A DNA stretch of 64,000 bases from an uncultured Thermotogae bacterium (GTDB taxonomy: Bacteria; Bipolaricaulota; Bipolaricaulia; RBG-16-55-9), in the NCBI GenBank assembly GCA_964567595.1, contig CAZMNF010000001.1, positions 48,531-112,530 on the forward strand. Direction: 5' to 3'. Each line of letters starts with the position of its first letter. Within the stretch, counting starts at the first letter, position 1. The notes below the pieces were generated by a model. It had not been told where the DNA came from, searched no databases, and saw only the letters and a program-made list of their open reading frames with translations. This document shows, in pieces, positions 44,610 through 63,000 of the stretch. The position numbers and the translations under genes were made by a program.

Positions 44610-44641
44610 TCCGGGCCTCGCTCCGCCGGACGTGGCGTTGA

Positions 44642-44650
44642 TGTTACAAT
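44642..44650 (+). promoter_or_regulatory. extended -10 element TGtTACAAT; predicted leaderless or near-leaderless crp/fnr mRNA
   Basis: TACAAT ends 8 nt before the ATG at 44659. No SD sequence lies between them. Confidence 0.4.
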
Positions 44651-44658
44651 GTTTCGGC

Positions 44659-45348
44659 ATGAGTGAGTCGAACCGGTGCCAAGTCTGTTTCAACGACAAG
44701 TGCATCCTGCTCGACGTGAGTCGTCAGGACGTCGACTTCCGTCCCGACGAGTTCGCCACGCTGCTGCGCTACGAGAAGGGCCAGACGCTCTTCCAGGAGA
44801 ACGAGCCGGCTTACGGCTACTTCATCGTCTGCCACGGCGCCGTCAAGCTGAGCCATCACCTGGAGGATGGCCGCATCCACATCGTCGCCGTGCTCGGGCC
44901 CGGCGACTTGATCGGCATGGAGGCCCATGCCACGGGCCGGTTCCGCGTCGAGGCCGAGGCGATGGCCCCGACCGAGGTCGGCTTCGTTGACCGGAACGAG
45001 CTGCAGTCGCTGGTGGAGCGGTTCCCGGCCTTCGCGACCTCGCTCATCGAAAAGCTGACGGAGGAACTGGGCATGCTCCAGGAGCGGATCTGGGCGACGG
45101 CCCGTCCGGGCGCGTCCAGTCGACTGGCCTACCTGTTGCTCGATCTGGCCCGAACGCACGGACATGACCGCGCCGAGGGCACGGAGATCGACCTGGCGCT
45201 CACCCGCGAGGAGCTGGGAGAGATGGCCGGCGTCTCCCGCGAGACGGCCAGCCTGACGCTCAGTCGCTTTGCGGAGCGCGGCTGGATCGACGCCGATCGG
45301 CGCCGCATCGTCGTCAAGGACGCCGACTCGCTCCAGGCGATGGTGTGA
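44659..45348 (+). CDS. Crp/Fnr-family transcriptional regulator with an N-terminal Cys cluster
   Basis: 'CQVCFNDKC' at the N-terminus, a cNMP-like beta-barrel, and C-terminal HTH 'TREELGEMAGVSRETASLTLSRF'. Alternative in-frame starts are GTG 44632 and ATG 44641. Confidence 0.8.
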   Translation: MSESNRCQVCFNDKCILLDVSRQDVDFRPDEFATLLRYEKGQTLFQENEPAYGYFIVCHGAVKLSHHLEDGRIHIVAVLGPGDLIGMEAHATGRFRVEAEAMAPTEVGFVDRNELQSLVERFPAFATSLIEKLTEELGMLQERIWATARPGASSRLAYLLLDLARTHGHDRAEGTEIDLALTREELGEMAGVSRETASLTLSRFAERGWIDADRRRIVVKDADSLQAMV

Positions 45349-45497: not shown

Positions 45498-47387
45498 GTG
45501 GGCACCAGCCAACTGGAAGCGACGATTCGGCAGACGCTGGCGTCGGCGGAATCGGAGCTGCACACCGAACAATTGGCCCAAGAGCTTGGGATCGCTCGCC
45601 ACACGGCCTCCAAGTACTTGGCCATTCTGCACACGAAGGGCGAGGTTCGATGTCGGAAAGTCGGCAACGCCAAGCTCTGGAGCATCGCTCCAACGGCCGA
45701 GCCGACAACAGGGGGTGACCGGGCCTGTGCGGAGCGCGTGTTCCTGGAGCTGCATCCGCCGCTGGACGACGCGGCGGCGGTCGTGGAAGCCGAGCGGTGT
45801 CTGGACTGCGGCGGCCCCTTGTCGCCGGCGCCCTGCGTGACGGCCTGCCCCACGTCGATCGACGTGCCGCGCTTCATCCAAGAGATTCGCGAGGGGCGGC
45901 CGCTCGACGCGGCCCGCACGATCTTCGACGCCAACGTCCTGGGCGGCAGTTGTGCCCGCGTCTGCCCCGTTGAGGAGCTCTGCGAGGGCGCCTGCGTTCT
46001 GGAAACGGAAGGCCGACGGGCCGTCGACATCAGGCGCCTGCAGCGCTATGCGACCGACCGTGCTCTGGCGGCCGAGGGCCCATCGTTTGCGACCGATGCG
46101 ACCGATGCGACCGAGGCGACTGCCTCGAGAACCGACGCAGCCAGCGTGGCCGTCGTCGGGGCCGGCCCGGCCGGGCTCGGCTGCGCGGCAGAATTGGCCC
46201 GACTTGGGCATCGGGTCGTCGTGTACGAGCGACGGTCCTGCCCGGGCGGCCTGATCACCAGCGCCATCGCCCCCTACAAACAGCTCGTCGATCCGCTGCC
46301 CGACGAGGTGGCTCGCCTCGAGTCGCTCGGCGTGGCGTTCCGCTTCGGCGTGACCCTGGGCCAGGACGTCACGCTGGACGCGCTGGAGCGTCGTTACGAT
46401 GCCGTCTTCCTCGGCATCGGCCTCGGGCCGGACATCCCGGCCAACCTCCCCGGCGAGCACCTCAACGGCGTCTGGGACTCGCTCGAGTTCATCGAGCACG
46501 TCAAGGAATCGCGGTTCGACGAGCTCGACCTCGACACGCCGCTTGCCGTGATCGGCGGCGGCAACACCGCCATCGACGTCGCCCGGGAGGCCAAGCGACT
46601 CGGGGTGTCGACCGTGACCGTGCTCTATCGGCGCACGGAAGACCAGATGCCGGCCTACGACCACGAGATCGAGGAGGCCAAGGCGGAGGGCGTGGACTTC
46701 CAGTTTTTGACCAATCCGACGCGATTTGTGGGCGACGACGGCCAGGTTCGAGGCGTCGAATGCGTCGAAATGACCCTGGGCGAGCCGGACGCATCGGGCC
46801 GCCCGCGACCGGAGCCCGTTGCGGATGCCGAGTACGTCGTCGAGGCCAACACGGTCGTCAAGGCGATCGGTCAGCGGCCGTGGACCGACCGGCTCGAGGC
46901 GTGGAACCTCGACCACGACCGCGGCTGGATCGAGACCCGGCGCCGCCGCACGAATCGTCCGACGGTCTACGCCGGCGGCGACTGCGTCAACGGCGGGGCA
47001 ACGGTCGTGGAGGCCGTACGGGACGGCCGCTCGGCGGCCCGTCGCATGCACGAAGCCATCGTCGGGCAGGCCTTGCCCAAGCCGATCACGACGGTCCGGG
47101 GCGAGACCGAACAGGCCGACGAGCGGACGTACTATTCGCAGGGGGCGGGGCACTACGTCGGGACGGAGCCGCGGCTCTGCAAGGGCTGTGAGCTCTGCGT
47201 CAACAGCTGCCCCAAGGGCGTGCTCGACCTCGACGCCAAGGGCAAGATCGTCATGAGCGACCCGAGCGAGTGCGTCTTCTGCGGGGTTTGTGAAGCCCGT
47301 TGTCCCGACTTCGCCATCTGGGTCGTCAAGGACGACGAGGGCGAGCGGGCGCCCGAGCGAGAGCCCGCGGAGGTGACGCTGACATGA
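45498..47387 (+). CDS. three-domain fusion: wHTH + GltD/PreT-like FAD/NAD(P)H oxidoreductase (2x[4Fe-4S]) + KorD-like 2x[4Fe-4S] ferredoxin
   Basis: aa 1-65: 'LHTEQLAQELGIARHTASKYLAILHTKGEVRCRKVGNAKLW' (wHTH). Then 'RCLDCGG...CVTACP' and 'GSCARVCPVEELCEGAC'. Two dinucleotide folds: 'VAVVGAGPAGLGCA' and 'LAVIGGGNTAIDVA'. C-terminus: 'CKGCELCVNSCP...CVFCGVCEARCP'. GTG start. Stop overlaps the korA ATG. Confidence 0.8.
   Translation: MGTSQLEATIRQTLASAESELHTEQLAQELGIARHTASKYLAILHTKGEVRCRKVGNAKLWSIAPTAEPTTGGDRACAERVFLELHPPLDDAAAVVEAERCLDCGGPLSPAPCVTACPTSIDVPRFIQEIREGRPLDAARTIFDANVLGGSCARVCPVEELCEGACVLETEGRRAVDIRRLQRYATDRALAAEGPSFATDATDATEATASRTDAASVAVVGAGPAGLGCAAELARLGHRVVVYERRSCPGGLITSAIAPYKQLVDPLPDEVARLESLGVAFRFGVTLGQDVTLDALERRYDAVFLGIGLGPDIPANLPGEHLNGVWDSLEFIEHVKESRFDELDLDTPLAVIGGGNTAIDVAREAKRLGVSTVTVLYRRTEDQMPAYDHEIEEAKAEGVDFQFLTNPTRFVGDDGQVRGVECVEMTLGEPDASGRPRPEPVADAEYVVEANTVVKAIGQRPWTDRLEAWNLDHDRGWIETRRRRTNRPTVYAGGDCVNGGATVVEAVRDGRSAARRMHEAIVGQALPKPITTVRGETEQADERTYYSQGAGHYVGTEPRLCKGCELCVNSCPKGVLDLDAKGKIVMSDPSECVFCGVCEARCPDFAIWVVKDDEGERAPEREPAEVTLT
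46089..46115 (+). repeat. 9-nt tandem repeat (GCGACCGAT x3) in an interdomain linker
   Basis: Encodes ATD-ATD-ATE. Confidence 0.85.
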
Positions 47388-48550
47388 GCCGGGCCACTCC
47401 CACGGCGACGCCGACGCAGCAGTTGGTGCAGGGCAACGAGGCGTGCGCCTACGGCGCGCTCTACGCGGGATGTGATTTTTACGCCGGGTATCCGATCACG
47501 CCCAGCTCCGAGGTCATGGAGATCATGAGCCGCGAGCAGCCCAAGCGCGGCGGGGCGTTCATCCAGATGGAGGATGAGATCGCCTCGATCTCCGCCATCA
47601 TTGGCGCGGCTTGGACGGGCGCGAAGGCCATGACGGCCACGAGCGGGCCAGGGTTTTCGCTGATGCAGGAGGGGCTCGGCTACGCCTGCATGACGGAGAC
47701 GCCGTGCGTCATCGTCGATTCCCAGCGCGGCGGCCCGTCGACGGGGCAGCCGACCAAGCCCGCCCAAGGCGACGTCATGCAAGCAATCTGGGGCACGCAC
47801 GGCGATCATCCCATTGTCGTGCTGACGGCCTCCGACGTGCGCGCGGCGTTCGAGATGACCGTGCAGGCGTTCAACATTTCCGAACGCTTCCGCGTCCCCG
47901 TCATTCTGCTGCTCGACGAAGTCCTCTCGCACATGCGCGAGAACATGGCCTGGCCCGAGCCGGGCGAAATCGAGGTCGTCGACCGGGCACGGCCCGCGTC
48001 GTTGGAGGGCTTCGAGGCCTTCGGGGGCGCGGAGTTCGTGCCGTTCGGCGAGGGACTGCGCTTCAACGTGACCGGCCTGTCGCACGACGGCCAGGGCCAG
48101 TACATCAAAGGCAGCGAGGCGGAAGCGATGTTCCGGCGGACCATGGACCGCGTCTACGGCAACGTCGAGCAGATCGCCCTCTACGACAACGTCGAGCTTG
48201 ACGACGCCGAGTACGTCATCGTCAGCTACGGCATCACGTCGCGAGCGGCCATGAGCGCCGTGGAGCGCTTCCGCGCCGACGGCCACCGGGTCGGCCTGCT
48301 CAACCTCAAGACGCTCTGGCCCTTCCCCGACTTCCTCTTCGAACGATTCTGCGACTGCGTGAAGGGGATCCTGGTTCCCGAACTGAACCTCGGGCAAGTC
48401 GTCCGCGAGGTGAGCCGCGCGGCGGGCGAGCGGCTCGGGCGCGAGGTCGCCGTCGAGTCGCTCTCGCGGGTCGACGGCCAACTGATCACGCCCCAGCAGA
48501 TCATCGATCGGATCCGGAGTTGGATCGACGAAGGAGGGCGGCATGAGTGA
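47384..48550 (+). CDS. korA: 2-oxoacid:ferredoxin oxidoreductase, alpha subunit
   Basis: 'GNEACAYGALYAGCDFYAGYPITPSSE' and 'SGPGFSLMQEGLGYA'. Confidence 0.9.
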   Translation: MSRATPTATPTQQLVQGNEACAYGALYAGCDFYAGYPITPSSEVMEIMSREQPKRGGAFIQMEDEIASISAIIGAAWTGAKAMTATSGPGFSLMQEGLGYACMTETPCVIVDSQRGGPSTGQPTKPAQGDVMQAIWGTHGDHPIVVLTASDVRAAFEMTVQAFNISERFRVPVILLLDEVLSHMRENMAWPEPGEIEVVDRARPASLEGFEAFGGAEFVPFGEGLRFNVTGLSHDGQGQYIKGSEAEAMFRRTMDRVYGNVEQIALYDNVELDDAEYVIVSYGITSRAAMSAVERFRADGHRVGLLNLKTLWPFPDFLFERFCDCVKGILVPELNLGQVVREVSRAAGERLGREVAVESLSRVDGQLITPQQIIDRIRSWIDEGGRHE

Positions 48551-49367
48551 GCACGGCGGCCAGTACCTGCGGGCGGACTACCTGCCGACGGTCTGGTGCC
48601 CCGGCTGCGGCAACGGCGTCATCGTCAAGTCGATGGCCGAGGCGATGGCCGACGTCGGCTGGGATCCGGACCAGACGGTCGTGGTGGGCGGCATCGGGTG
48701 TTCGGGGCGGACGCCGTTCTATCTGGATGCCAACACGATGCACACCACCCACGGCCGCGCACTGGCGTTCGCCACGGGCGTCAAGATGGCCCGGCCTCGG
48801 TTCAACGTCGTCGTCACCATGGGCGACGGCGACGCCAGCGGCATCGGCGGCAACCACTTCATCCATGCCTGCCGGCGCAACATCGACCTGACCGCGATCG
48901 TGTTCGACAACTCCATCTACGGCCAAACGGGCGGTCAGCTCGCCCCGACGACGCCCACGGGCAAAGTGAGCACGACGTCGCCGCAGGGCAGCGTCGATCC
49001 GTCGTTCGATCTGTGCCAGTTGGCCGAGGGCTCGGGCGCGAGCTTCGTGGCGCGGACCTCGACATTCGATTTCCAGCAGCTGCAGGATCTCTTGGTGCGC
49101 GGCTTCCAACACCGCGGCTTTGCCCTCGTCGAGGTCATGACGACCTGTCCGACGTACTACGGCCGCATGAACGGGGTCCGCGATCCCTACGCCATGCTGC
49201 GCGAGATCGAACAAATAACGCAGGACAGCAACGGGCACGCCAACGGACATGGAGACGGAGAGCCCCTTGACCTGAATGCGCGACCGACAGGGGTCTTCGT
49301 CAATGAGTCCCGCGACGAGTACACCGACATCTATCGACGGCGCTGTGAGGAGGCGAGGTCGGGATGA
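48543..49367 (+). CDS. korB: 2-oxoacid:ferredoxin oxidoreductase, beta (TPP) subunit
   Basis: 'WCPGCGNG' and 'GDGDASGIGGNHFIHACRRN'. Confidence 0.9.
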   Translation: MSEHGGQYLRADYLPTVWCPGCGNGVIVKSMAEAMADVGWDPDQTVVVGGIGCSGRTPFYLDANTMHTTHGRALAFATGVKMARPRFNVVVTMGDGDASGIGGNHFIHACRRNIDLTAIVFDNSIYGQTGGQLAPTTPTGKVSTTSPQGSVDPSFDLCQLAEGSGASFVARTSTFDFQQLQDLLVRGFQHRGFALVEVMTTCPTYYGRMNGVRDPYAMLREIEQITQDSNGHANGHGDGEPLDLNARPTGVFVNESRDEYTDIYRRRCEEARSG

Positions 49368-49933
49368 CGACACGACGGGCTCCCGATGGGCGTGTGGAGC
49401 TGCGCCTCAGTGGCGCGGGCGGCCAAGGGCTCATCACCGCCGGCGTGATCCTTTCCGAGGCGGCCGTGCTGGACAGACGCCAGGTCGTGCAGACCCAGAG
49501 CTACGGGCCGGAGGCGCGCCTCGGCGCCAGCCGAGCCGAGGTCATCGTCGCCCGCGAGACGATCGCCTACCCGCAGGTCGTTGAGCCCGACGTCATCCTC
49601 TGTCTGTCCCAAGATTCCTTCGACAAATACATCGGCGACGCCAACGAGGAGACGCTCGTCGTCGTCGACGCCAGCAACGTCGAGGTCAACGGCTCGACAA
49701 ACGGGGCCCAAGTCTACGCATTTCCCATCACGGAGACGGCGATCGAGGTCGGTCACAAGGTCGTGGCCAACGTTGTCGCGCTCGGCGCGCTCAACGCGTT
49801 GGCCGAGGTGGTCTCTTCCGAGAGCCTGACGGAGGCCGTGCTGCGCCGCGTGCCCGATAAACACCGCGAGATGAACGAAAGGGCCATCGAAGCGGGCCAC
49901 GAGCTGGTCGCGGCGTCCGCGGCGACGTCCTAG
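49364..49933 (+). CDS. korC: 2-oxoacid:ferredoxin oxidoreductase, gamma subunit
   Basis: 'LRLSGAGGQGLITAGVIL' and 'SYGPEARLGASRAEV'. Confidence 0.85.
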   Translation: MTTRRAPDGRVELRLSGAGGQGLITAGVILSEAAVLDRRQVVQTQSYGPEARLGASRAEVIVARETIAYPQVVEPDVILCLSQDSFDKYIGDANEETLVVVDASNVEVNGSTNGAQVYAFPITETAIEVGHKVVANVVALGALNALAEVVSSESLTEAVLRRVPDKHREMNERAIEAGHELVAASAATS

Positions 49934-49950
49934 GCAGCGATCCTGATGGC

Positions 49951-50046
49951 TATCTCAAGATATCGATATCTCATACGAAAAATTCCAGAACTGCCGCAAA
50001 ATCCAGAACGTGAGCTGATTACGGGCATATCGGCCGATGATAAAGA
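49951..50046 (+). promoter_or_regulatory. AT-rich control region upstream of the GltD-like/nuo operon
   Basis: Perfect 14-bp palindrome AGATATCGATATCT at 49958-49971. TATCTCA occurs twice (49951 and 49967). Direct repeats AAAAT(T)CCAGAAC at 49979-49991 and 49998-50009. Possible extended -10 TGaTAAAGA at 50038-50046. Confidence 0.5.
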
Positions 50047-50100
50047 TCATTGGCGCCACGCGACCACGTTTGCAAACTCACCTTAGCGGAGGGGTGGACG

Positions 50101-51675
50101 ATGCCGAAGCTGACCGATTCTGAACTGAAAGAACGGCTACAGGGCCACTACGAGTACGAGCAGCTGCCCGAGCGCAAGGTCCCGCCGGAAGAGCGCATGA
50201 CGTTCGAGGAGCTGGCGCTCGGCTACGACGAGGACAGCGTTCGCGCGGAGGCCGATCGCTGCATGCAGTGCCAGGATCCGCCGTGCGTCAAGGCCTGCCC
50301 CGCGCACCTCAACGTGCCGGGCTACGTCCAAAAGATCGCCGAGGGCGACGACAAGGGCGCGCTCCAGACCATCATGGACACGTACCCCTTGCCGGCCAGC
50401 TGTGGCCGCGTCTGCTTCCATCCCTGCACCGACGTCTGCCTGCGCGGGGTCCAGGGCGAGCCGCTCAACATCCCGCGGCTGCGGCGCTTCGTCGCGGACA
50501 AAGTGAGCCAGTACGACTTGGACTACGACATCCCCGAGTCGACCGGCAAGCGGATCGCCTGCATCGGCTCCGGCCCGGCCAGTCTGTCGTGTGCTTATCA
50601 CCTGCGCCGGCGGGGTCACGACGTCGTCGTCTTTGAGAGCAATGAGAAGCCGGGCGGCGCGCTCAACACCATTCCCGACTACCGGCTGCCCAACGACGTG
50701 CTCCAGGAGGAAGTCGACGTGCTGCGCTGGCTCGGCGTTGACGTCCGCACGGACGAGGGCGTCGGCGGCGACGGCTGCATCGACGCGCTTCTGAAGGCCT
50801 ATGACGCCATCTTTATCGGCGCGGGTGCGGTCAGCTCCTGGAAGCCCGGCATGCCCGGCATCGACCTGCCCGGCAGCATCACGGGGCTCGACTTCCTGCG
50901 CGCGGCCGACCGCGGCGAGATGCCGGAATTCAACCGCGTGGCCGTCATCGGCGGCGGCGACGTCGCCATGGACGCGCTGCGGACGTCGCTGCGCCGCGCT
51001 GAGACCGTGCATTGGGTCTATCGCCGCAGCGCCGAACAGATGCCGAGCACCGAGGACGAGGTCGTCGAGCTCGGCGAGGAGGTCGTGCTCCACGACCTGG
51101 ACGAGATCGAGGACGCCTTCGTCGATCCTTACAAGGAGAACGTCCTCCATGAAGCGCGCGAGAAGCTGCTCCACTTGACGTTCGAGAAGCGCCAGGAGAT
51201 CGAGGCCGAGATCGACAAGGGCATCAAGTCGCGCGCGGTTGAGGCCATCAACCGCGAAGCCGATGAGCACGATGGCAAGCTGGTTGTCCAGCTGCTGACC
51301 AACCCGACGCAGCTCTTGGGCGAGGACCGCGTCGAGGGCATGGAGCTGCAGCGCATGGAACTCGGCCCGCCCGATGACAGCGGCCGCCGCAAGCCCCAGC
51401 CCGTGGAGGGCTCGGAGTTCGTCGTCGACGTCGACACCGTCATCTGGTGCATCGGCCAGGACGTCGACTCCAGCTGGCTCCCCGAGGACAGCGGGATCGA
51501 GCTGAAGAAGTGGGGCGAGGTGATCGCCGACGAGACCCAGCGGACGAGCCGCGAGCGCGTCTTCGCCGGGGGCGACGCCGTGCGCGGCCCCTCCAGCATG
51601 ATCGACGCGCTGGCCGACGGCATCCGCGCGGCCGACGAAATTCATGACGAGATCACCGCGGAGGTGCCCGCATGA
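50101..51675 (+). CDS. GltD/NfnB-like FAD + 2x[4Fe-4S] NAD(P)H oxidoreductase, translationally coupled to nuoA
   Basis: '[14 protein letters not shown]', '[14 protein letters not shown]', '[14 protein letters not shown]', '[13 protein letters not shown]' and 'GGDAVRG'. ATG 50101 lies 6 nt after GGAGGGGTGG. The stop shares ATGA with the nuoA start. Confidence 0.85.
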
Positions 51676-52037
51676 ACGCCTTGGGAGGCTATCTGCCGCT
51701 TTTGATGATCAGCGTCGTCGGGATCGGCATCGTCGCCGTCGTGCTCTGGCTCGGCCACAAGCTGACCCCGCCCGACGACAGCGGCGAGAAGGGCGAGACC
51801 TACGAGTGCGGCGAGAAGCCGATCGGCTCGACCCAGAAGCCGATCGACATCAAGTACTACATGTACGTGCTGCTCTTCCTCGTCATCGACGTGGAGATCG
51901 CGTTCCTGATTCCCTGGGCGATCGAGTTCCGCTCGTTCGGGCTGCTCGCCTTTATCGAGATCATGATCTTCGTCGGCATTCTGCTCCTGGCTTGGGCCTA
52001 CGCCTGGAAGGAGGGGTTCCTGAAGTGGCTCCGCTAA
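51672..52037 (+). CDS. nuoA: NADH-quinone oxidoreductase-type subunit A
   Basis: 'YECGEKP...[23 protein letters not shown]'. Confidence 0.9.
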
Positions 52038-52651
52038 ACGACGACGTGCGACCGAACGGCCAAAACGGCCCGAACGGCCAGAAGGGCCAAGCCGAGGGGC
52101 TCGACCGCGGCATCGACGCGCTGGCCCAAGAGAAGGGCGGCTTGAGCGGGTTTGCTCTCGCCAAGGCGGACGAGTTCCTCAATTGGGCCCGCAGCAACTC
52201 CATGTGGCCGCTCACGTTCGGGCTCGCCTGCTGCGCGCTGGAGATGATGTCCTGTCAGGACTCGCGCTTCGACATGGCGCGGTTCGGCTCGGAGATTTTT
52301 CGGCCGTCGCCGCGACAGGCTGATTTGATGATCGTGGCCGGGACGGTCACGAAGCGCATGGCCCCACGCGTGAAAACCATTTACGACCAGATGGCCGATC
52401 CGAAGTACGTCATCGCCATGGGCGCCTGCACCATCAACGGCGGGCCCTATCAGACGACCTACAGCGTCGTCAAGGGGGTCGACTTGATCGTCCCCGTCGA
52501 CGTCCACTGCCCCGGGTGCCCGCCGACGCCGAACGCGCTGTTGCACGCGCTCATGACGCTGCAGGAGAAGATCCGCGACCGCGAGGGGGGCTACCGCGTG
52601 CCCCCGCTCGTTCGAGAGGAGCTGCAGCCGACATGGCAGAGCCCGTCATGA
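52025..52651 (+). CDS. nuoB: complex I subunit B (N2 cluster)
   Basis: '[15 protein letters not shown]', '[10 protein letters not shown]' and 'CPGCPPTP'. GTG start 8 nt after GGAGGGG. Confidence 0.9.
52052..52087 (+). repeat. 18-nt tandem duplication in the NuoB N-terminal tail
   Basis: CCGAACGGCCAAAACGGC / CCGAACGGCCAGAAGGGC, encoding [12 protein letters not shown]. Confidence 0.85.
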
Positions 52652-53160
52652 GCGAGCGATCCTCGATCCTCGACGGCCTGAAACCCAAGGTCGCCGACGC
52701 GATTCAGGAAGAGACGATGTTGTTGGACAAGCCGATGTGGATCGTCGACGGCAAACGCCTGCGTGAGGTCGGCGAGGCGGCCAAGTCGAGCGGCTTCGTC
52801 CATCTGGCCTGCATCACCGCGATCGACAAGCTCGACGAGGAGGCCATCGACGTCGTCTACAACCTCTATGCCTACGAGACGCTCGAGCATCTGGCGCTGA
52901 AGGTCCGGACGCCGCGCGACGACGCGCGCGTGCCGTCGGTCGTGCCCGTCTGGAAGGCGGCGGACTTCCTGGAGCGCGAGCAGTACGACCTCGTCGGGGT
53001 CGTCTTCGAGGGGCACCCGAACTTGCGGCGCATCCTGCTGCCCGAGCCCTGGCAAGGGCATCCCCTTCGAAAGGACTACGACATGGCCACCGAGCAATAC
53101 ATCAGCAAGGGCCCCGAGGGCGGCGACGTCGTCTCCACGGACCCCGAAAGCGGGTGGTAG
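52633..53160 (+). CDS. nuoC: complex I subunit C
   Basis: 'ITAIDKL...VVYNLY', '[14 protein letters not shown]' and 'HPLRKDY'. Start is ATG 52633 or ATG 52648. Confidence 0.85.
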
Positions 53161-54326
53161 CGATGAGCACGGAGATCGAGCGCTCCCCAGAGATTCAGCC
53201 CTACACGCTGGAGAAGACCGAGCAAGAGGACAAGCTCATCATGAACATGGGCCCGCACCACCCGGCCACGCACGGCGTGTTGCGGCTGGTCTTGACCTTG
53301 GACGGCGAGGTCGTCAAGCGGGCCCAGCCCGTCGTGGGGTATCTGCACCGCAGCTTCGAGAAGATGGCGGAGCTGAACCGCTATCCGCAGTTCATCGTGG
53401 AGTGCAACCGCGCCGACTACGTGGCGGCCTCCCACTATGAGGCCGCTTATGTGCGCGCCGTCGAGGAGCTGGCCGGGATCGAGCCGACCCCGCGCGGGCA
53501 GTACATGCGCGTGATCGTCAACGAGCTCGATCGCATCCAGAGCCATCTGCTGTGGCTCGGCACCTTCGGCCTCGACATCGGCGCGCTCAACGCCTTCTTC
53601 TACGCGTTTCGTGAGCGCGAGTTCGTCCTGGAGCTCTTCCAGGAGCTGACCGGCGCGCGCATGCACTACAACTTCCTGCGCTTCGGCGGCGTCAAGGCCG
53701 ACTTCCCGGAGGGATTCGAGGCCAAGGTCCGCGAGGCCTGCGATATTGCCGAGCAGAAGGTCGACGAATACGAGGATTTCCTGTCGGGCAGCGACACGTT
53801 CCTCATGCGGACCCAGGGCGTCGGCGTGCTCACCCAGGAGGAAGCGCTCGAGTGGGGCATCACCGGCCCCAATCTCCGCGCGGTGGGCATCGATCACGAC
53901 CTGCGCCGCGACGAGCCCTACTTCGCCTACGGCGACCTTGAGGTCGACGTGCCCACGCGCACCAACGGCGACGCCTACGCCCGCTATGAAGTTCGGCTGG
54001 ATGAGATCCGGGCCTCGGTGAAGCTGGTCCGCCAGGCGCTCGATCGGATGCCGGACGGGCCCGTCGTGCCGCGCGGCCTGGAGAAGGGCTACCAACTGCT
54101 CGTCACGACCGAGGGCGAGCACTACACGCAGATTGAAGGCGCCCGCGGCCCGATCGGCGTCTTCCTCGTCGGCGACGGGACGACGTTCCCCTATCGGGTC
54201 AAGCTGCGCTCGCCGTGTTTCGTCAACCTGGCGATCCTGCCGGAGCTGTTCCGCGACGGGATCATCTCCGACTTGGTCGCGATCAACGGCAGCTTCGACG
54301 TGATCCTGCCGTGCGTCGACCGATGA
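53154..54326 (+). CDS. nuoD: complex I subunit D
   Basis: 'MNMGPHHPATHGVLRL', 'GYLHRSFEK' and 'RSPCFVNL'. Confidence 0.95.
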   Translation: MVAMSTEIERSPEIQPYTLEKTEQEDKLIMNMGPHHPATHGVLRLVLTLDGEVVKRAQPVVGYLHRSFEKMAELNRYPQFIVECNRADYVAASHYEAAYVRAVEELAGIEPTPRGQYMRVIVNELDRIQSHLLWLGTFGLDIGALNAFFYAFREREFVLELFQELTGARMHYNFLRFGGVKADFPEGFEAKVREACDIAEQKVDEYEDFLSGSDTFLMRTQGVGVLTQEEALEWGITGPNLRAVGIDHDLRRDEPYFAYGDLEVDVPTRTNGDAYARYEVRLDEIRASVKLVRQALDRMPDGPVVPRGLEKGYQLLVTTEGEHYTQIEGARGPIGVFLVGDGTTFPYRVKLRSPCFVNLAILPELFRDGIISDLVAINGSFDVILPCVDR

Positions 54327-54381
54327 GACCCCGAGAGGCGATGGCGATGCGACAGGGACTGAAAGGGACGGTGAACGACCG

Positions 54382-55365
54382 ATGACGCCCGCACAGATCG
54401 GCATTTATGCGGTCGGGTCCGTGGCCCTGATCGGCTTCGTGGCCGGGGCGGGCGGCGTCCTGACCTACGTATTTCGCAAGCTCTTTGCCGACTTCGGCCA
54501 GCGGATCGGCCCCAATCGCGTCGGCCCCTACGGCGTGATCCAGTTCGTCGCCGACGGCGTCAAGCTGATCTCCAAGGAAGACACCATTCCGCGACGCTCG
54601 GAGAAAATCGGCTTCCGGCTGGCGCCCTATTTCATGTTCGTGCCCGCAGTGCTCGCGTTCAGCCCGATTCCCTTCGGCAAGGGATTGTTGATCACCGACG
54701 TCCGGCTCGGGCTGGTGCTCTTGTTCGCGCTGGCCGCGTTCGCGCCGGTGGGGGAGCTCCTGGCGGGCTGGTCGTCCCATAACAAGTACTCGCTGATCGG
54801 CGCGCTGCGCGCCGGCGCCATGGACGTCAGCTACGGGGTGCCGCTCCTGTTCTCCGCGCTATCGGTCATCATGCTGACGGGCTCGGCCAACACGCAGGAG
54901 ATCGTCGAGGCCCAGCGCGGGCTCTGGTACTTTATCCCCCAAATCCTCGGACTGTTTGTCTTCTTCACCGCCCTCGTGGGGAAAGTCGGCGTCATTCCCT
55001 TCGACTTGGCCGAGGCGGAAAGCGAGCTGATCGCCGGATTCATGACCGAATACAGCGGCATGCGCTTTGCGTTCTTCTTTTTGACCATCTTCGCCAACGT
55101 CTTCTTCATCGCGGCGCTGACCGTGACGCTCTACTTCGGCGGCTGGCTCGGCCCATTCGGGTTGGATCTGCCCTGGCAACTGTCGTTCGTCTGGTTCTTC
55201 GCCAAGGCGATCGTGCTCGTGTTCGTGGTCTTCTGGGTCTGGAACAGCCTGCCGCGCGTCCGCATTGATCAATTCTTGAACATCAACTGGAAGTTCCTGT
55301 TTCCGCTCTCGCTCGTCAACCTCGTGTTGACGGCCATTCTCGTTCTGACCGGGGTGATCCAATAA
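54382..55365 (+). CDS. nuoH: complex I subunit H
   Basis: 'QRIGPNRVGPYGVIQFVADGVKL' and 'FDLAEAESELIAGFMTEYSGMRFA'. Confidence 0.95.
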   Translation: MTPAQIGIYAVGSVALIGFVAGAGGVLTYVFRKLFADFGQRIGPNRVGPYGVIQFVADGVKLISKEDTIPRRSEKIGFRLAPYFMFVPAVLAFSPIPFGKGLLITDVRLGLVLLFALAAFAPVGELLAGWSSHNKYSLIGALRAGAMDVSYGVPLLFSALSVIMLTGSANTQEIVEAQRGLWYFIPQILGLFVFFTALVGKVGVIPFDLAEAESELIAGFMTEYSGMRFAFFFLTIFANVFFIAALTVTLYFGGWLGPFGLDLPWQLSFVWFFAKAIVLVFVVFWVWNSLPRVRIDQFLNINWKFLFPLSLVNLVLTAILVLTGVIQ

Positions 55366-55862
55366 TGATTGTCGGCGCCCTTCGTGGCATGGCCGTGACG
55401 TTGACAAACTTCTTCCGTCGTTCTGTGGTTGTCCAGTATCCCGAAGAGCGCCCCCATCTGCCGGAGCGCTTCCGGGGGCGGCTGTTTCTCGACGCCGACA
55501 TTTGCACGGGCTGTCTCATGTGCGAGCAGGCCTGTCCGAATGGGGCGCTCAAGATGGTTCCCTGGGAGCCCATCGACAACACCGCCAACCCGCAGGACCG
55601 CGAGGCCAACCTCTATCCGCAAGTCGATGTCGCCATGTGCACCTACTGCGGCTGGTGCGAGGAGGTCTGCCCCACCAGCGCCATCCGCCACACGACCCAG
55701 TTCGAGCTCTCCAAGTACGAACGCGACAACTTCGACTACAACCCGGCGATGCTCGGCCATCGTGAGGAGGAGATCTGGGAGGCCCCGGTGCCGCCTCAGA
55801 CGCCTCCGCCCCAGCCCAGCGAGGACGGGACGCCGCTCGCCGAGACAGGAGAACGGTCATGA
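55365..55862 (+). CDS. nuoI: complex I subunit I (2x[4Fe-4S])
   Basis: 'CTGCLMCEQACP' and 'CTYCGWCEEVCP', plus a Pro-rich C-terminal tail. Confidence 0.9.
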   Translation: MIVGALRGMAVTLTNFFRRSVVVQYPEERPHLPERFRGRLFLDADICTGCLMCEQACPNGALKMVPWEPIDNTANPQDREANLYPQVDVAMCTYCGWCEEVCPTSAIRHTTQFELSKYERDNFDYNPAMLGHREEEIWEAPVPPQTPPPQPSEDGTPLAETGERS

Positions 55863-56107
55863 TCGTCTTCGCAGTTCTGGCGATCGCGTTGGTGGTAACC
55901 GCGGTCATGGCCATCCACGTCGAGAAGCTGACCTACGCAGCGCTGTGGCTAGCCGGCACGCTCGGCGTCGTGGCGTCGCTGTTTTTGACGCTCGGCGCGG
56001 AGTTCCTGGCGGTGGTCCAGTTGCTCGTCTACGCCGGCGCGGTCGTGACGCTCATTCTCTTCGCCATCATGTTCGCCAATCGCGAAGCCGAGGAGGGGGA
56101 GAGCTGA
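55859..56107 (+). CDS. nuoJ: complex I subunit J, N-terminal half (J1)
   Basis: 82 aa with 3 TM helices, 'AEFLAVVQLLVYAGAVVTLILFAIMF'. Confidence 0.8.
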   Translation: MIVFAVLAIALVVTAVMAIHVEKLTYAALWLAGTLGVVASLFLTLGAEFLAVVQLLVYAGAVVTLILFAIMFANREAEEGES

Positions 56108-56108
56108 C

Positions 56109-56339
56109 ATGCGACGCGCGCTCGCCGGCCTCGCCGCCGGCCTGTTTGCGATCATCCTGGTGGTCCTGATTCTGGCGCCGGAGGCTTGGCAGAGTGCCCC
56201 TCTCGGCGCCGAAAACTTTAAGGCGATCGGAGACGTCCTCTTTGGGCCCTATCTGCTGGCGTTCGAGATCGTGTCGGTGTTGCTCGTGGCCGCCTTGGTC
56301 GGGGCGCTCTATCTCGCGTGGAAGGGGGCCTCATCGTGA
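56109..56339 (+). CDS. nuoJ: complex I subunit J, C-terminal half (J2)
   Basis: 76 aa, '[26 protein letters not shown]'. Its own ATG lies 1 nt after the J1 stop, in a different frame. Confidence 0.75.
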
Positions 56340-56638
56340 TGTCGATATCCGCCTATCTCGCGCTCAGCGCGCTGCTCTTTGCCATCGGCACATACGGGCT
56401 GTTGGTCTCCCGCAACGGCATCCGGATCCTGATCTGCGTGGAGCTGCTCCTGAACGCCGCCAACATCAACCTCGTGGCGTTCGCGGCGTTCCACGAGCAC
56501 GCGCTCGGCTACGTCTTCGCGCTGTTCTCCATTGCGCTGGCGGCAGCGGAAGCCGCCGTGGGATTGTCGATCTTCATCGCGCTGTTCCGGCTTCGAAAGA
56601 ACATCGACGTGAGCCTGCTTACGACCTTGAGGGGCTGA
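56339..56638 (+). CDS. nuoK: complex I subunit K
   Basis: '[18 protein letters not shown]' and '[12 protein letters not shown]'. Confidence 0.9.
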
Positions 56639-56642
56639 TGAG

Positions 56643-58559
56643 ATGAGCTATCAACTTGCCTGGCTGATTCCGGCGATTCCCCTGGCGGCAGCGTTCGTCA
56701 TCGCCGTGTTGGGGCCGCGTCTGCGCGACGGCGGCGGCTGGCTGGCCGTGGTCGCGGGCGGCCTGTCCGTGGTCATCGCGTTGCCCTTGGGCTGGCAGGC
56801 GCTGCACAGTGAAGAAGCCTTCCATCAGACGTTCACCTGGTTCAGCGCCGGGGACTTGCAACTGAACGTCGGCATTTACCTCGACCACTTGGCGGCCCTG
56901 TTGATGATGGTCGTCAGCTTCGTCAGCTTCCTCATCCTCGTCTACTCCATCAGCTACATGAGCCACGAGGGCAAGCGCCGCCCGCGCTACTTCGCCGAGG
57001 TCTCGCTGTTCATCGGCGCCATGCTCGGCGTCGTGCTGGCCGACAACTATCTCGAAGTCTACGTCTTCTGGGAGCTGGTGGGGCTCTGTTCGTATCTGCT
57101 CATCGGGTTCTGGTACGAGCGTCCGTCGGCGTCGGCCGCCGCCATCAAGGCGTTTCTCGTCACGCGCGTGGGCGATCTCTTCTTCCTGCTCGGGTTGGTC
57201 GTGCTGCTCGTGCAGTTCCAGACGCTGCAGTTCGACGAGCTGTTCACCATGACCGTCCCGCCGGATCAGATGTGGGCCATTGGTCTCGCTGGCTTGTTTA
57301 TCTTCGGCGGCGCGGTTGGAAAATCCGCACAGTTCCCGCTGCACATCTGGCTGCCCGACGCCATGGAGGGTCCCACGACCGTCTCGGCGCTCATCCACGC
57401 GGCCGCGATGGTCAAAGCCGGCGTCTATCTCGTCGCGCGCACCATGCCCTTGCTCGTCATGATGAGCGGCAACCTCGTCTTCATCGCGCTGATCGGCGGC
57501 TTCACCGCCATCATGGCGGCGGTATTGGCGACGATGAAGAACGACATCAAGCGCGTGCTCGCCTACTCCACGATCTCGCAGCTGGGCTACATGTTCCTGG
57601 GCCTCGGCGTCGGCGGGCTCGCGTACGCCGTTCACGACCACGAGGCCACGGGCTACACCGCCGGGCTGTTCCACCTCATGAACCACGCGTTCTTTAAGGC
57701 CCTGCTCTTCCTCTGCGCCGGGTCGGTGATGCACGCCATGAGCGAGCGGACGGATATGCGACGAATGGGGCAGCTCTGGCCGAAGCTCAAGATCACGGGG
57801 ACCGCCATGCTCGTGGGGGCGCTCTCCAACGCCGGTATCCCGCCGACGAGCGGCTTCTGGAGCAAGGACGAAATTCTGGCGTCGGCGCTGACCACCGCCA
57901 ACGGGAACTTCCTGGTGACCCTGGCCTGGGTCTTCGGCTTCATCACTGTCTTCCTCACGTCCTTCTATCTCTTCCGACTCTGGTTCATGACGTTCGCGGG
58001 GACCAAGCGTTGGGACCCCGACGTCCACCCGCACGAGTCGCCCCCGCTCATGACGTGGCCGCTCATCATTCTGGCGATCTTCGCCTTCGGCTCCGGCTTT
58101 CTCGTCTTCGCCGGATTTGGGAGCTTCATCGCCTTCGGCGAGCCGCACGCGGTCGCGCCGGGCGCGTATCTGGCGCAAACCTTCGGCAATCCGTGGGCAC
58201 TGCTGTCGATCGCCTTGGCGCTGGGCGGGATCGGCCTCGCCTATCTGATCTATCACCGCGGCATGGACGTCTCGCGCTACCGCACCGCCGCGGGCGCGGC
58301 GTGCTATCGCGTGCTCGATCGGAACTACTACCTCGACGACGTCGCCAACGGGCTGGCCGGCAAGGTCACGGTCGGCTTGGCCAAGGGCGTCGACTTTGTC
58401 GACCGACGCGGCGTGGACGGGATCATCAACGGGGTCGCCCTGGGCAGCGCGCGGCTCGGCACGCGCTTACGGCATACGGCCACCGGCTTGGTCAGCGACT
58501 ACGCGGGCTGGGTGCTCGCCGGGGTCATCGTCCTCATGGTCGTCTTCATCTGGAGGTAA
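56643..58559 (+). CDS. nuoL: complex I subunit L
   Basis: 638 aa antiporter-like protein, '[32 protein letters not shown]'-type motif. Confidence 0.95.
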   Translation: [638 protein letters not shown]

Positions 58560-58565
58560 CGTCCA

Positions 58566-60032
58566 ATGGGTCTCGTGACATGGATGCTGCTAACCTCGCT
58601 CTTCGGCGCCCTCATCCTCTGGGTCGTCCGGGCCGACGCCGTCAAGCCGATCGCGCTGGCGCTTGCCGTCGTCGTCTTTGTGCTGGCGACGCTGGCGGCG
58701 CTGTCGTTCCACCCGGGCGCGCCCGGCTATCAGTTCGTCGACGAGGCCTCCTGGGTGCCGCAGATCGGCGTCCAGTACAAGGTCGGCCTCGACGGCATCA
58801 GCCTGCCCATGGTCTGGCTGACGGCGCTGCTGACGCTTTTGGTCGTCGTGTTCTCCTGGAACATCGCCGACCGGGCGTACTACGCGCTCTTCTTCCTGTT
58901 GCAACTGGCCGTGATCGGCGTTTTCACCGCGCTTGACCTCTTTCTGTTCTACGTCTTCTGGGAGCTGGTGCTGGTGCCGATGTACTTCATCATTCGCGGC
59001 TGGGGCGGCGAACGCAAGGAATATGCCGCGATCAAGTTCTTCGTCTACACGTTCACCGCCAGCCTGGTGATGCTCGTCGGCATCATGGCGCTCTATTTCT
59101 CAACGGGCGCGCAGACGTTTGACATCACCCAATTGGCTGGAATGGCACCGGACCTGGCGCGCAACGCTCAGATCTGGATCTTTGCGGCACTGTTCATCGG
59201 ATTTCTCGTCAAGATGCCGCAGATCCCCGTCCACACCTGGCTTCCCGACGCCCACGTCCAGGCGCCCACGGGCGGCTCGGTCATCCTGGCCGGCGTCTTG
59301 CTGAAGCTGGGCTCCTACGGGCTGATCCGGGTGTCGCTGCCGCTGCTGCCCGAGGGCGCGCAGGCCTTCGTGCCGGTGATGGTCGTCTTGGGCGTACTCA
59401 GCATCCTCTACGCCGCGCTCGTCTGTCTGGCGCAGCGCGATCTCAAACGCCTGGTCGCCTATTCGAGCATCAGCCACATGGGGATGGTGCTGCTCGGCAC
59501 GGCCGTGTTGGGCCAGGCCGGGATCACCGCCGCCGTCTACATGATGTTCGCGCACGGGCTCATCAGCGGGCTCTTGTTCATGATCGTCGGCGCGATCCAC
59601 CACGGCGCCGGGACGCGCGAGATCCCGAACCTGGGCGGCCTGGCGCTCACGGCACCCAAGGCCGGGATGATCATCATGGCCGGCGCGCTGGCGTCGTTGG
59701 GCCTGCCGGGCATGGTCCAGTTCGTCGCCGAGTTCACGGTGTTCGTGTCGGCGTTCGCGGCCTTCGGCTGGTGGATCCTGCTGCCCGTGCTCACGGTGGT
59801 GCTGACGGCCGGGTATTATCTCTGGGCGCTCAAACGGAGCATGTTCGGGCAACTGGCGCCGATGGCCGAGGCGGCCCACGACGTCAAGTCGTACGAGTTC
59901 TGGCCCATGATGGCGCTGGTGGCGCTGATCATCGTCTTCGGCGTCGTCCCGGCCGTCTGGATGGGACCGATCGACGCCGCCGTCGCGCAGAACGTGCTTG
60001 AGCCGATCTTGACGCTAGGGGTGAGACCGTGA
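58566..60032 (+). CDS. nuoM: complex I subunit M
   Basis: 'KMPQIPVHTWLPDAHVQAPTGGSVILAGVLLKLG'. Confidence 0.95.
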   Translation: MGLVTWMLLTSLFGALILWVVRADAVKPIALALAVVVFVLATLAALSFHPGAPGYQFVDEASWVPQIGVQYKVGLDGISLPMVWLTALLTLLVVVFSWNIADRAYYALFFLLQLAVIGVFTALDLFLFYVFWELVLVPMYFIIRGWGGERKEYAAIKFFVYTFTASLVMLVGIMALYFSTGAQTFDITQLAGMAPDLARNAQIWIFAALFIGFLVKMPQIPVHTWLPDAHVQAPTGGSVILAGVLLKLGSYGLIRVSLPLLPEGAQAFVPVMVVLGVLSILYAALVCLAQRDLKRLVAYSSISHMGMVLLGTAVLGQAGITAAVYMMFAHGLISGLLFMIVGAIHHGAGTREIPNLGGLALTAPKAGMIIMAGALASLGLPGMVQFVAEFTVFVSAFAAFGWWILLPVLTVVLTAGYYLWALKRSMFGQLAPMAEAAHDVKSYEFWPMMALVALIIVFGVVPAVWMGPIDAAVAQNVLEPILTLGVRP

Positions 60033-61459
60033 CCGCCTACGACCTTCTCGGGATCCTGCCCGAGCTGATCCTCGTCGTCACCGCGTTTGCCATTCTGCTG
60101 ACGCGCCGCGTGGAGCAGGAGTTGGCGCTCTTCGGCTTGGTGTTGGCGCTCGCCAGCCTGACCGTGATCCCGCAGGAGACGTTCTTCTTCGGCACGATCG
60201 CCATCGACGCCTTCGCGCTGGCATTCATGGCGCTCTTCCTCGGCATGGCTGTCTTAGTGGGGCTCGGCTCCACCGAGCGCGTCCACGCCGATCGGGCCAA
60301 GGAGTACTACGCGCTCCTGCTCTTCGCCACCGTCGGGATGCTCGGCGTGGCGGGCTCCACGGATCTGATCACGCTCTTCGTCAGCTTCGAGCTGTCCAGT
60401 CTGTCCACCTACGCATTGGTCGCGTATACGAAACAGAGAGAAGCTTCGGTCGAGGCGGCCACAAAATTCTTCGTCATCGGGGCGTTCAGCAGCGCGCTGG
60501 CGCTCTACGGCATTTCACTATTGTACGGCGTCTCGGGCACGACGACGATCAGTGAGCTGGCCACCAACGTCGAGGCATCCGGCTTGACATCCGTCTTTCA
60601 GATCGGCGTCGTGCTGGTCCTGGCCGGCTTCGGCTTCAAGATCACGGTGATCCCGTTCCACCTCTGGGCGCCGGACACCTACGAGGGCGCGCCGACGCCC
60701 ATCACCGCCCTCTTAGCAACGGGCTCCAAAAAAATGGGCTTCGCCGTGCTGTTGAAGATCTTCTTCCTGGGACTCATCGCCATGAAGATGCAGTGGGCGC
60801 CGATCTTCGGCGTGCTGGCCGTGCTGACGATGACGATGGGCAACCTGATGGCGCTCGCGCAGTCGAGCGTCAAGCGGATGCTGGCCTATTCCTCGATCGC
60901 CCAGGCCGGCTACATCCTGATTGCGTTTGCCGTGGCGACGCCGTATGGCCTGGCAGGCGGGCTGTTCCACATCGTCACGCACTCGGTCATGACCGTGGGA
61001 GCGTTCTTGGTGGTTGCGGCGGTGAGTGGGGTCGAGCGCGACGACTTCCCCTTGTTTGCTGGCCTGTCGCAGCGCCAGCCGTTCTTGGCCGTGTCGATGG
61101 CCGTGTTCATGATCTCCTTGGCCGGCATTCCGCCGCTGGTCGGGTTCCAGAGCAAGTTCGTGCTCTTCTCCAGCGCGGTCCAGACCGGCATCGAGGGGCC
61201 GTCCTGGCTGGTCTGGCTGGCGATCTTCGGCGTGCTCAACTCGGCGCTGTCCCTCGGCTACTACGCCCGCGTCCTGAAGGCCATGTACTTCACCGAGGTC
61301 GCCCCACAGTTCGCCAGCAATCCGCACCCGAAGCGCTTGACGGTTCCCGTGCCTCTGTTGGCCTCCATCGCCGTGGCGCTGGCGTTCGTGATCGGGTTCG
61401 GGCTCTTCCCGGCGCCGATCCTCGACGCGCTGTTGAGCGTGGCGGGGACGTTGCTGTAG
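60029..61459 (+). CDS. nuoN: complex I subunit N
   Basis: 'FKITVIPFHLWAPDTYEGAPTPITALL'. GTG start overlaps the nuoM stop. Confidence 0.95.
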   Translation: MTAYDLLGILPELILVVTAFAILLTRRVEQELALFGLVLALASLTVIPQETFFFGTIAIDAFALAFMALFLGMAVLVGLGSTERVHADRAKEYYALLLFATVGMLGVAGSTDLITLFVSFELSSLSTYALVAYTKQREASVEAATKFFVIGAFSSALALYGISLLYGVSGTTTISELATNVEASGLTSVFQIGVVLVLAGFGFKITVIPFHLWAPDTYEGAPTPITALLATGSKKMGFAVLLKIFFLGLIAMKMQWAPIFGVLAVLTMTMGNLMALAQSSVKRMLAYSSIAQAGYILIAFAVATPYGLAGGLFHIVTHSVMTVGAFLVVAAVSGVERDDFPLFAGLSQRQPFLAVSMAVFMISLAGIPPLVGFQSKFVLFSSAVQTGIEGPSWLVWLAIFGVLNSALSLGYYARVLKAMYFTEVAPQFASNPHPKRLTVPVPLLASIAVALAFVIGFGLFPAPILDALLSVAGTLL

Positions 61460-61693
61460 CTCGATCTCTCGCTGTGGCAATGCTTGTAGGCACACCCTTT
61501 TCCAGATGGCCTGCCAAAGGGCCGACCGTGGTCGAGTCGGTACCAATGTGGTTGGCAACCGCTGATCATGACGGACCTGAACTAGTCGGCGAATTAAGAT
61601 CGAGTCAACATGGATCCATCCGTCGTCAGCTTGGCGCTTCACTGTGCCGTAGCGACGGGCTATTGCTCGACTGGAGCCCACGCCCCGTGCCAG

Positions 61694-62986: not shown

Positions 62987-63000
62987 GGAGGCCCGAGTCC

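Follow-up and report, generated by a model that had tools for sequence, protein, structure and literature searches.

The archaeal complexes Fpo and Fqo (F420H2:(methano)phenazine or quinone oxidoreductases) rely on FpoF/FqoF, a protein that carries a flavin and two [4Fe-4S] clusters and oxidises a hydride carrier. FpoF/FqoF feeds an 11-subunit complex I homologue that lacks NuoEFG, presumably at the clusters of NuoI/FpoI. In Campylobacter, Cj1574c and Cj1575c illustrate that NuoE and NuoF are replaceable, and complex I can receive electrons from a 2-oxoacid oxidoreductase. Here we describe a further candidate for such an electron input. It is encoded in a stretch of 64,000 nucleotides (hereafter the window) from an uncultured bacterium of the phylum Bipolaricaulota (assembly GCA_964567595.1, contig CAZMNF010000001.1), where a gene that we call gltDx lies directly upstream of the nuo genes for an 11-subunit complex I (NUO11). 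The gene product, GltDx, belongs to the Fe-S flavoproteins of the GltD/NfnB/SudA type. Judged from sequence comparisons, it most likely takes the place of the NuoEFG module (N-module) in a quinone-reducing 11-subunit complex I of this phylum, as a lineage-specific substitute.

The electron donor to the widespread 11-subunit complex I has long been regarded as an open question (PMC11238625), and Moparthi and Hagerhall (2011) found no common donor, as cited in the same article. GltD-like modules have been reviewed as units that pass electrons from NAD(P)H to a partner through two low-potential clusters, for instance in glutamate synthase (GltS) and dihydropyrimidine dehydrogenase (DPD), and complex I is not among the partners of that review (PMC8097209). 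In Mbx-like operons of Thermotoga and proteobacteria, a gltD-related flavoprotein substitutes NuoI and was read as a site of NAD(P)+ reduction (Degli Esposti 2015, PMC4758237). The literature that we searched on Bipolaricaulota/Acetothermia in connection with nuo or GltD contained no description of the present arrangement or protein family. Nor did the searched literature describe a quinone-type nuo operon with a separate GltD-like gene at its head, gltD-related subunits being noted only in Mbx-like operons.

GltDx resembles NfnB and carries a family-specific insert

The gltDx open reading frame (ORF) extends from the ATG at 50101 to the TGA at 51673-51675 and encodes 524 aa. It is preceded at 50088-50097 by the Shine-Dalgarno (SD) sequence GGAGGGGTGG, whose end is separated from the ATG by 3 nt. 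The ORF, its SD and two N-terminal 4-Cys motifs had been proposed in an earlier reading of the DNA (the original prediction), and all were found. The cysteines are arranged as C54-x2-C57-x4-C62-x3-C66-P and C101-x3-C105-x3-C109-x3-C113, and both motifs fall into a Fer4_20 domain (Table 1). The remainder of the protein matches Pyr_redox_2 (residues 151-507, Pfam) and comprises FAD and NAD(P)H domains of the adrenodoxin reductase-like type. Two GxGxxG/A Rossmann motifs had also been proposed; the second, GGGDVA, conforms as GxGxxA, whereas the first, GSGPAS, is a GxGxxS. The predicted cofactors are two [4Fe-4S] clusters, FAD and NADPH.

The closest sequence matches in the PDB were NfnABC, NfnI-L and NfnB (1e-83 to 5e-96), and solved relatives with GltD-like chains comprise NfnABC (9n5u, 9bov), NfnI-L (5jca), NfnB (4ylf), Xfn, StnC, GltD and DPD. 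An AlphaFold2 (AF2) model of GltDx, calculated with a 31-sequence family alignment as input, reached a pLDDT of 77.7 and a pTM of 0.79. Foldseek matched this model to 5jca_L, 4ylf_B and 6s6s (NfnI-L, NfnB and GltD) with TMt values of 0.83-0.84 and a probability of 1.00. The residues V306-Y307-R308-R309-S310 are invariant across the 31 family members, and VYRRS..MP of GltDx aligns with YRR(S/T)..EMPA of the NADPH-binding proteins NfnB and NfnI-L. Because this YRR motif is invariant and aligned to that of NADPH-binding relatives, NADPH is a likelier substrate of GltDx than NADH.

The NADPH domain of GltDx is interrupted by a family-specific insert of about 62 aa (residues 330-391). All 31 family members possess it, whereas every solved homologue lacks it and has a short 'EEGV' turn instead, and the PDB alignments to GltDx break at residues 329/387-399. 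In the AF2 model the insert forms a helical hairpin (helices 333-354 and 361-389) with pLDDT values of 50-67, which might serve docking or dimerisation. Further residues set the family apart. Arg128 (50482-50484) is invariant, and the residue aligned with it is a Lys in NfnABC/Stn-type chains and the Glu of 'LERF' in NfnB/NfnI-L, a presumed non-Cys cluster ligand. A GDGC motif (Cys226, 50776-50778) is likewise invariant, and H107, T110 and D111 within CFHPCTDVC are nearly so. The NCBIfam model PRK13984 ('putative oxidoreductase') matched the NuoI of the window as well as GltDx.

The gltDx gene precedes a nuo operon that lacks nuoEFG

The genes downstream of gltDx have the order nuoABCDHIJKLMN, which is that of an 11-subunit (NUO11) complex I, and nuoEFG were found neither in the operon nor elsewhere within the window. 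NuoB keeps the tandem-Cys motif of cluster N2 (GLACCALEM, HCPGCPP). NuoD keeps the His and Tyr of the quinone site (GPHHPATHG, GYLHR), ends in ...LPCVDR and shows neither a NiFe CxxC motif nor vestigial NiFe cysteines. As the N2 motif, HHPATHG and GYLHR are kept and NiFe cysteines are absent, we classify the predicted complex as a quinone-type NUO11. NuoI is intact, and no Mrp antiporter genes were found in the window. The nuoJ gene is split into two ORFs (55859-56339), one matching the N-terminal and the other the C-terminal half of Oxidored_q3. Three related loci (L002, L060, L062) share this split, and nuoJ is unsplit in a fourth (L006).

The stop codon of gltDx and the start codon of nuoA (ATG at 51672-51674) share an ATGA, exactly as the original prediction had stated. 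It had read this overlap as translational coupling between subunits of one complex. However, with longest-ORF starts, overlaps occur in 17 of the window's 45 pairs of co-directional neighbours, also between unrelated genes such as those for a major facilitator superfamily transporter and RNase HII, so the ATGA alone is weak evidence in this genome. The overlap argues for co-transcription of gltDx and nuoA in an operon, not for membership in a shared complex. A terminator between the two genes, which had been named as an observation that would speak against the idea, was not seen: the scan of 49300-52700 yielded no terminator-like site on the + strand, the junction included.

The position of gltDx upstream of nuoA is conserved in its family

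Clustering at 90% identity divides the insert-bearing GltDx family into about 33 clusters; outside it, identity falls sharply to ordinary NfnB-like proteins of 450-470 aa. Two clades can be distinguished, A (the window protein and P0002-P0021) and B (P0022-P0032), and all named members come from Bipolaricaulia or Bipolaricaulota. The isolate name of the closest public relative starts with 'DAL-Ass'.

We compared the gene neighbourhoods of family members and give locus identities relative to the GltDx protein of the window. Of 13 distinct loci, about 10 have a family gene or a tandem pair directly 5' of nuoA, at 48-93% identity. Orthologues consistently located away from nuo, which the original prediction had listed as evidence against it, are thus not what was found. 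The most similar locus (L001, 93%) has the same 4-nt overlap with nuoA as the window. A 4-nt overlap is also present in L002-L004 (55%), together with kor genes upstream and a pntA-like gene downstream. Longer overlaps occur in L062 (55%, 20 nt) and in L060 (clade B, 50%, 25 nt). In L006, L013 and L014 a clade A and a clade B gene stand in tandem and are followed by nuoA with an overlap of 1 nt (L006) or 11 nt (L013, L014). In L009, L010 and L011 (55-58%) the gene is likewise located 5' of nuoA, separated from it by 133-222 nt. Most of the nuo-adjacent family loci do not have kor genes upstream. By comparison, none of the approximately 33 ordinary GltD-like loci from the same scan adjoins nuo. 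As most family loci and no ordinary locus have this arrangement, and as exceptions exist (see Discussion), adjacency to nuoA is a conserved, not an absolute, trait of the family.

A 90%-identical, kor-linked clade A gene on a truncated contig (L008) and a stand-alone clade B gene (L012) come from the same metagenome, Ga0207797. This shared sample and the tandem loci hint that the clades A and B may work as a pair even when they are encoded apart. In L062, nuoB (2549-4285) encodes 578 aa with an Intein_splicing domain between the halves of the NuoB domain.

The ordinary GltD-like genes (L018-L047) form a separate, large family and, in about 25 loci from metagenomes, lie just 3' of 2-oxoacid:ferredoxin oxidoreductase (OFOR) genes. 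Their location suggests that they belong to NAD(P)-linked 2-oxoacid oxidoreductases, and it recalls the NAD-dependent phenylglyoxylate dehydrogenase Pad system, which was among the NCBIfam matches. Genes resembling GltD_up, the second GltD-like gene of the window (Table 1), were also present in L002 and L063.

GltD modules are fused to subunits of complex I-type enzymes

Several loci encode GltD modules that are covalently joined to complex I-type subunits. P0274 (653 aa, cluster of 6) consists of the N-terminus of NuoI, a GltD module and the ferredoxin core of NuoI. It occupies the nuoI slot in an operon of the order nuoA-B-C-D-H-[x]-J-K-... (L064) that encodes a quinone-type NuoD and a quinone-type NuoB. 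Fusions of the P0274 type thus demonstrate that GltD wired directly to NuoI exists in genuine NUO11 operons. P0158 (1004 aa, 3 metagenomes) additionally contains NuoH, in the order NuoH, NuoI N-terminus, GltD and NuoI ferredoxin core, and is encoded in a nuoD-[x]-J-K-L-M-N operon followed by an NAD kinase gene (L058). NuoC::GltD proteins (9 clusters) were found in Ech-like or Mrp-Mbx-like loci (L005, L059). NuoB::GltD proteins form 3 clusters. One of their loci, L057, encodes a true [NiFe] hydrogenase of the Mrp-Mbh type that has the CxxC motifs, and HycI is encoded nearby. When 1.84 billion representatives were searched by HMMER with NuoH-NuoI::GltD as the query, the three-part fusion proved rare, and NuoI::GltD chimeras recurred. 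The other long matches were mostly GltD fusions to old yellow enzyme (OYE) or dihydroorotate dehydrogenase (DHODH), unrelated to nuo.

Upstream region and neighbouring genes

Table 1. Coordinates of gltDx and of neighbouring features in the window.
Feature	Position	Strand	Basis or remark
GltD_up, upstream GltD-like paralogue with C-terminal 2x[4Fe-4S] KorD/OorD-like ferredoxin domain	45498-47387	+	Pfam, NCBIfam
kor genes	47300-49933	+	Pfam, NCBIfam
korA	47300-48550	+	
korB	48543-49367	+	
korG	49364-49933	+	
Intergenic region korG-gltDx, 167 nt, 50% GC (window 64.6%)	49934-50100	+	holds GGAGGGGTGG, TCCAGAAC, ATGATAAAGATCAT
gltDx (GltDx, 524-aa Fe-S flavoprotein, GltD/NfnB/SudA family)	50101-51675	+	Pfam, PDB matches, AF2 model
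Fer4_20 domain (aa 33-137), both 4-Cys motifs	50197-50511	+	Pfam PF14691, 1e-30
Family-specific insert, about 62 aa, NADPH domain	51088-51273	+	PDB alignments, AF2
ATGA stop/start overlap, gltDx/nuoA	51672-51675	+	nuoA ATG on gltDx TGA
nuo operon, nuoA-nuoN	51672-61459	+	Pfam and NCBIfam
nuoA	51672-52037	+	
nuoB	52025-52651	+	
nuoC	about 52633-53160	+	
nuoD	53154-54326	+	
nuoH	54382-55365	+	
nuoI	55365-55862	+	
nuoJ1	55859-56107	+	
nuoJ2	56109-56339	+	
nuoK	56318-56638	+	
nuoL	56643-58559	+	
nuoM	58566-60032	+	
nuoN	60029-61459	+	
pnt genes	61706-64000	+	Pfam, NCBIfam
pntAa	61706-62986	+	
pntAb	63001-63279	+	
pntB	63287 to beyond window	+	

The AT-rich gap of 167 nt between the kor genes and gltDx, as described in the original prediction, is present and clearly poorer in GC than the window (Table 1). 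It contains the direct repeat TCCAGAAC at 49984-49991 and 50002-50009 and the palindrome ATGATAAAGATCAT at 50037-50050, which was spotted by eye and in the alignment. Both blocks are kept in L001 and L008, with variable adjacent bases, and are candidates for an operator or promoter. The region as a whole is probably the promoter/operator region of the gltDx-nuo unit. A scan of 49300-52700 for consensus sigma-70-like promoters found none, the 167-nt gap included, and therefore tells little about the promoters of this host. No match was returned by an Rfam scan of 49800-50200 or by an inverted-repeat search of the intergenic region. A further palindrome, AGATATCGATATCT (~49957-49970), was dropped as it is not conserved in L001 or L008. 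A gene for a Crp/Fnr-family regulator lies at 44632-45348. In L009 (~3280-3400), L010 (~5530-5740) and L011 (~7600-7760), a TGACCnnnGGTCA-like palindrome immediately follows the gltDx stop codon, within the gap before nuoA.

The kor cluster upstream of this region begins with GltD_up, which matched Fer4_20, Pyr_redox_2 and Fer4_7 in Pfam, OorD in NCBIfam (residues 557-614) and, weakly, HTH_11 at its N-terminus. The korABG genes encode a 2-oxoacid:ferredoxin oxidoreductase (Pfam POR_N/PFOR_II, TPP_enzyme_C and POR). KorA scored 511 bits with the NCBIfam alpha-subunit model (cut-off 411), and the true start of korA is probably later than 47300. On the other side of the operon, 246 nt 3' of nuoN and on the same strand, the pnt genes encode a proton-translocating NAD(P) transhydrogenase. 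PntA scored 410 bits in NCBIfam (cut-off 383), Pfam matched PNTB_4TM and PNTB, and a pntA-like gene is located 3' of nuoN in L002 as well. The scan of 61300-64000 found no promoter and no terminator on the + strand.

More distant genes of the window, whose coordinates are listed jointly (5327-8784, 24222-26827, 10039-10416, 540-1397), are related to osmoadaptation (trehalose-phosphate synthase and phosphatase, MscS channel) and oxygen exposure (Fe/Mn superoxide dismutase, ferritin) or encode a UbiE/COQ5-type methyltransferase and, at 10039-10416, a 2x[4Fe-4S] ferredoxin.

Discussion

We propose that GltDx oxidises NADPH and, as an input subunit, feeds the electrons directly to NuoI, which would make the complex a proton-pumping NADPH:quinone oxidoreductase. 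We give this specific assignment about even chances. NADPH would donate a hydride to the FAD of GltDx, from where single electrons would pass through its two N-terminal [4Fe-4S] clusters to N6a/N6b in NuoI. From there they would reach N2 of NuoB and, at the site between NuoD and NuoH, menaquinone, and this electron path would power proton pumping by NuoL, NuoM and NuoN. Docking of GltDx on NuoI as a separate protein is part of what we infer, as are the direction of electron flow, the use of NADPH instead of NADH and menaquinone as the acceptor. The proposal is supported by the fold and cofactor motifs, the conserved position, the natural fusions and the absence of another partner or of an N-module from the window. 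Further support comes from the GltD family at large, which is established as a module that hands electrons from NAD(P)H on to a partner, GltS and DPD being examples. The kor cluster headed by the GltD_up/ferredoxin fusion and pntAB fit an NADPH-centred supply. The original prediction had already suggested GltDx as a possible NAD(P)H module at NuoI. Orthologue position and the GltD fusions to NuoI, NuoH-NuoI, NuoC and NuoB speak for this placement, whereas its argument from the gene overlap is weak and exceptions exist.

Several observations weigh against an input subunit at NuoI. The 133-222 nt before nuoA in L009-L011 carry TTGAC(A/C)-N17-TAxxxT-like sequences. Because of these promoter-like sequences, nuoA probably has its own promoter there and co-translation is not universal. 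In L063 (clade A, 58%) the gene order is GltD_up, OFOR, GltDx, with a 1-nt overlap between gltDx and the OFOR beta gene, and no nuo genes were found downstream of this orthologue. The clade B genes of L007, L061 and probably L012 (49-50%) stand alone, away from nuo. Among solved structures, NuoD is closest to the cyanobacterial/chloroplast NdhH (2e-108; Thermus Nqo4, 6e-96). Finally, the GltD modules in the fusion proteins belong to other, insert-less subfamilies; they illustrate the principle and not GltDx itself.

Some of these points would be expected if GltDx were a soluble NADP(H):ferredoxin oxidoreductase and the NUO11 complex were fed by free ferredoxin like the cyanobacterial NDH-1. 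OFOR would then reduce ferredoxin, GltDx would equilibrate the ferredoxin and NADP(H) pools, and the genes would cluster on account of a common ferredoxin and not of binding. This is the main rival, and we regard it as less probable than direct input at NuoI. The gene also adjoins OFOR genes in the window, L001 and L002, and only OFOR genes in L063; some family members stand alone, NuoD is most like the NdhH of the ferredoxin-dependent NDH-1, and a 2x[4Fe-4S] ferredoxin is encoded at 10039-10416. In Nfn, moreover, the two [4Fe-4S] clusters of NfnB form the ferredoxin-facing branch (PMC8097209). However, the majority of the nuo-adjacent loci have no OFOR nearby, and the covalent fusions of GltD to NuoI, NuoH, NuoC and NuoB indicate that direct wiring is in use. 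In addition, the ferredoxin fusion of GltD_up already links OFOR to NADP, which would render a second soluble enzyme redundant.

Electrons might also run in the opposite direction, with reduced ferredoxin feeding the complex and GltDx reducing NADP+ as the output module of a ferredoxin:NADP+ oxidoreductase that is possibly ion-translocating. Degli Esposti (2015, PMC4758237) has proposed such a role for the gltD-related flavoprotein encoded in the Mbx-like operons of Thermotoga and proteobacteria, and the NuoC::GltD and NuoB::GltD fusions are located in Mrp-Mbh/Mbx-like clusters. The complex of the window, however, is not Mbx-like, as nuoA, J, K, L, M and N are present, Mrp genes are absent and NuoI is intact. 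Its NuoD retains the His and Tyr of the quinone site and lacks vestigial NiFe cysteines, and the tandem-Cys motif of N2 is preserved in NuoB. Moreover, electrons passing from NuoI to GltDx would not run through N2 and the quinone site, at which coupling takes place, and we consider an output role improbable. The most conventional view would take gltDx for the gene of an ordinary glutamate synthase small subunit or of an NfnB, or for the final gene of the kor cluster, and its adjacency to nuoA for incidental. This view could draw on the frequent overlaps of gene ends in this genome and on the public annotation of relatives as 'glutamate synthase small chain' or 'FAD-dependent oxidoreductase'. 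Each of these identities was rejected. GltDx scored far below the cut-offs of the glutamate synthase equivalogs (TIGR01316, 323.6 versus 471.75; TIGR01318, 277.2 versus 482.95), and gltB is present neither in the 64-kb window nor in related loci. A gene for an NfnA/SudB/PyrK-like small subunit, the partner to be expected of an Nfn, was found neither in the window nor beside the orthologues. A last kor gene is at odds with the 167-nt gap to korG and with the adjacency to nuoA, which is kept down to 48% identity without kor. Incidental adjacency therefore ranks as very improbable.

If GltDx is indeed an NADPH-oxidising subunit at NuoI, it would represent the first complex I driven by NADPH via a non-NuoF flavoprotein. 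This would widen the modular view of complex I evolution and alter the energy metabolism inferred from Bipolaricaulota genomes, whose present annotation of the gene goes no further than 'FAD-dependent oxidoreductase' or 'glutamate synthase small chain'. The locus offers a concrete and testable donor candidate for NUO11 in one phylum, defined by a single gene with a family signature, and the natural NuoI::GltD counterparts suggest where GltDx may dock. A broader picture can be drawn as well, which we hold with a little less than even confidence: members of the complex I/Mbh superfamily may have acquired GltD-type NAD(P)H modules on several independent occasions, as fusions to NuoI, to NuoH plus NuoI, to NuoC and to NuoB and as a free subunit. 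The last would provide Bipolaricaulota with an NADPH:menaquinone pump in an NADPH-centred chain together with pntAB and NADP-linked OFOR. A more extreme variant, in which the NfnB-like FAD bifurcates and sends one electron to quinone via Nuo and the other uphill to ferredoxin, is in our view highly unlikely.

Compared with described systems, GltDx, a credible candidate for a replacement electron-input module, appears to extend the known modular input modules of the complex I superfamily, and gltDx at the head of a quinone-type nuo operon would be a new arrangement. By function, its closest analogue may be FpoF/FqoF. That protein is of the FrhB type, uses F420H2 and is biochemically established, whereas GltDx is of the unrelated GltD type and its use of NAD(P)H is predicted only. 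The gltD-related flavoprotein of Mbx-like operons shares with GltDx the GltD family, the encoding together with Q-module genes of the complex I/Mbx type and a proposed NAD(P)-reactive site, and our fusion loci L005, L057 and L059 match its description. It replaces or merges with NuoI in an Mrp-containing, non-quinone complex and has been read as an NADP+-reducing output. In contrast, GltDx has a unique insert and is encoded by a separate gene, which precedes a quinone-type nuoA-N operon that is complete and retains an intact NuoI. NfnB/NfnI-L/SudA and GltD provide the best sequence and structure matches and have Fer4_20, the FAD and NADPH domains and the YRR motif in common with GltDx, which differs from them by the lack of an NfnA/SudB or GltB partner gene, the 62-aa hairpin, Arg128 and GDGC (Cys226). 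The NuoEFG N-module and Cj1574c/Cj1575c of Campylobacter, finally, are peripheral electron-input modules above NuoI, as is proposed for GltDx. GltDx is not homologous to NuoE, NuoF or NuoG, would use FAD instead of FMN and is predicted to oxidise NADPH instead of NADH or flavodoxin.

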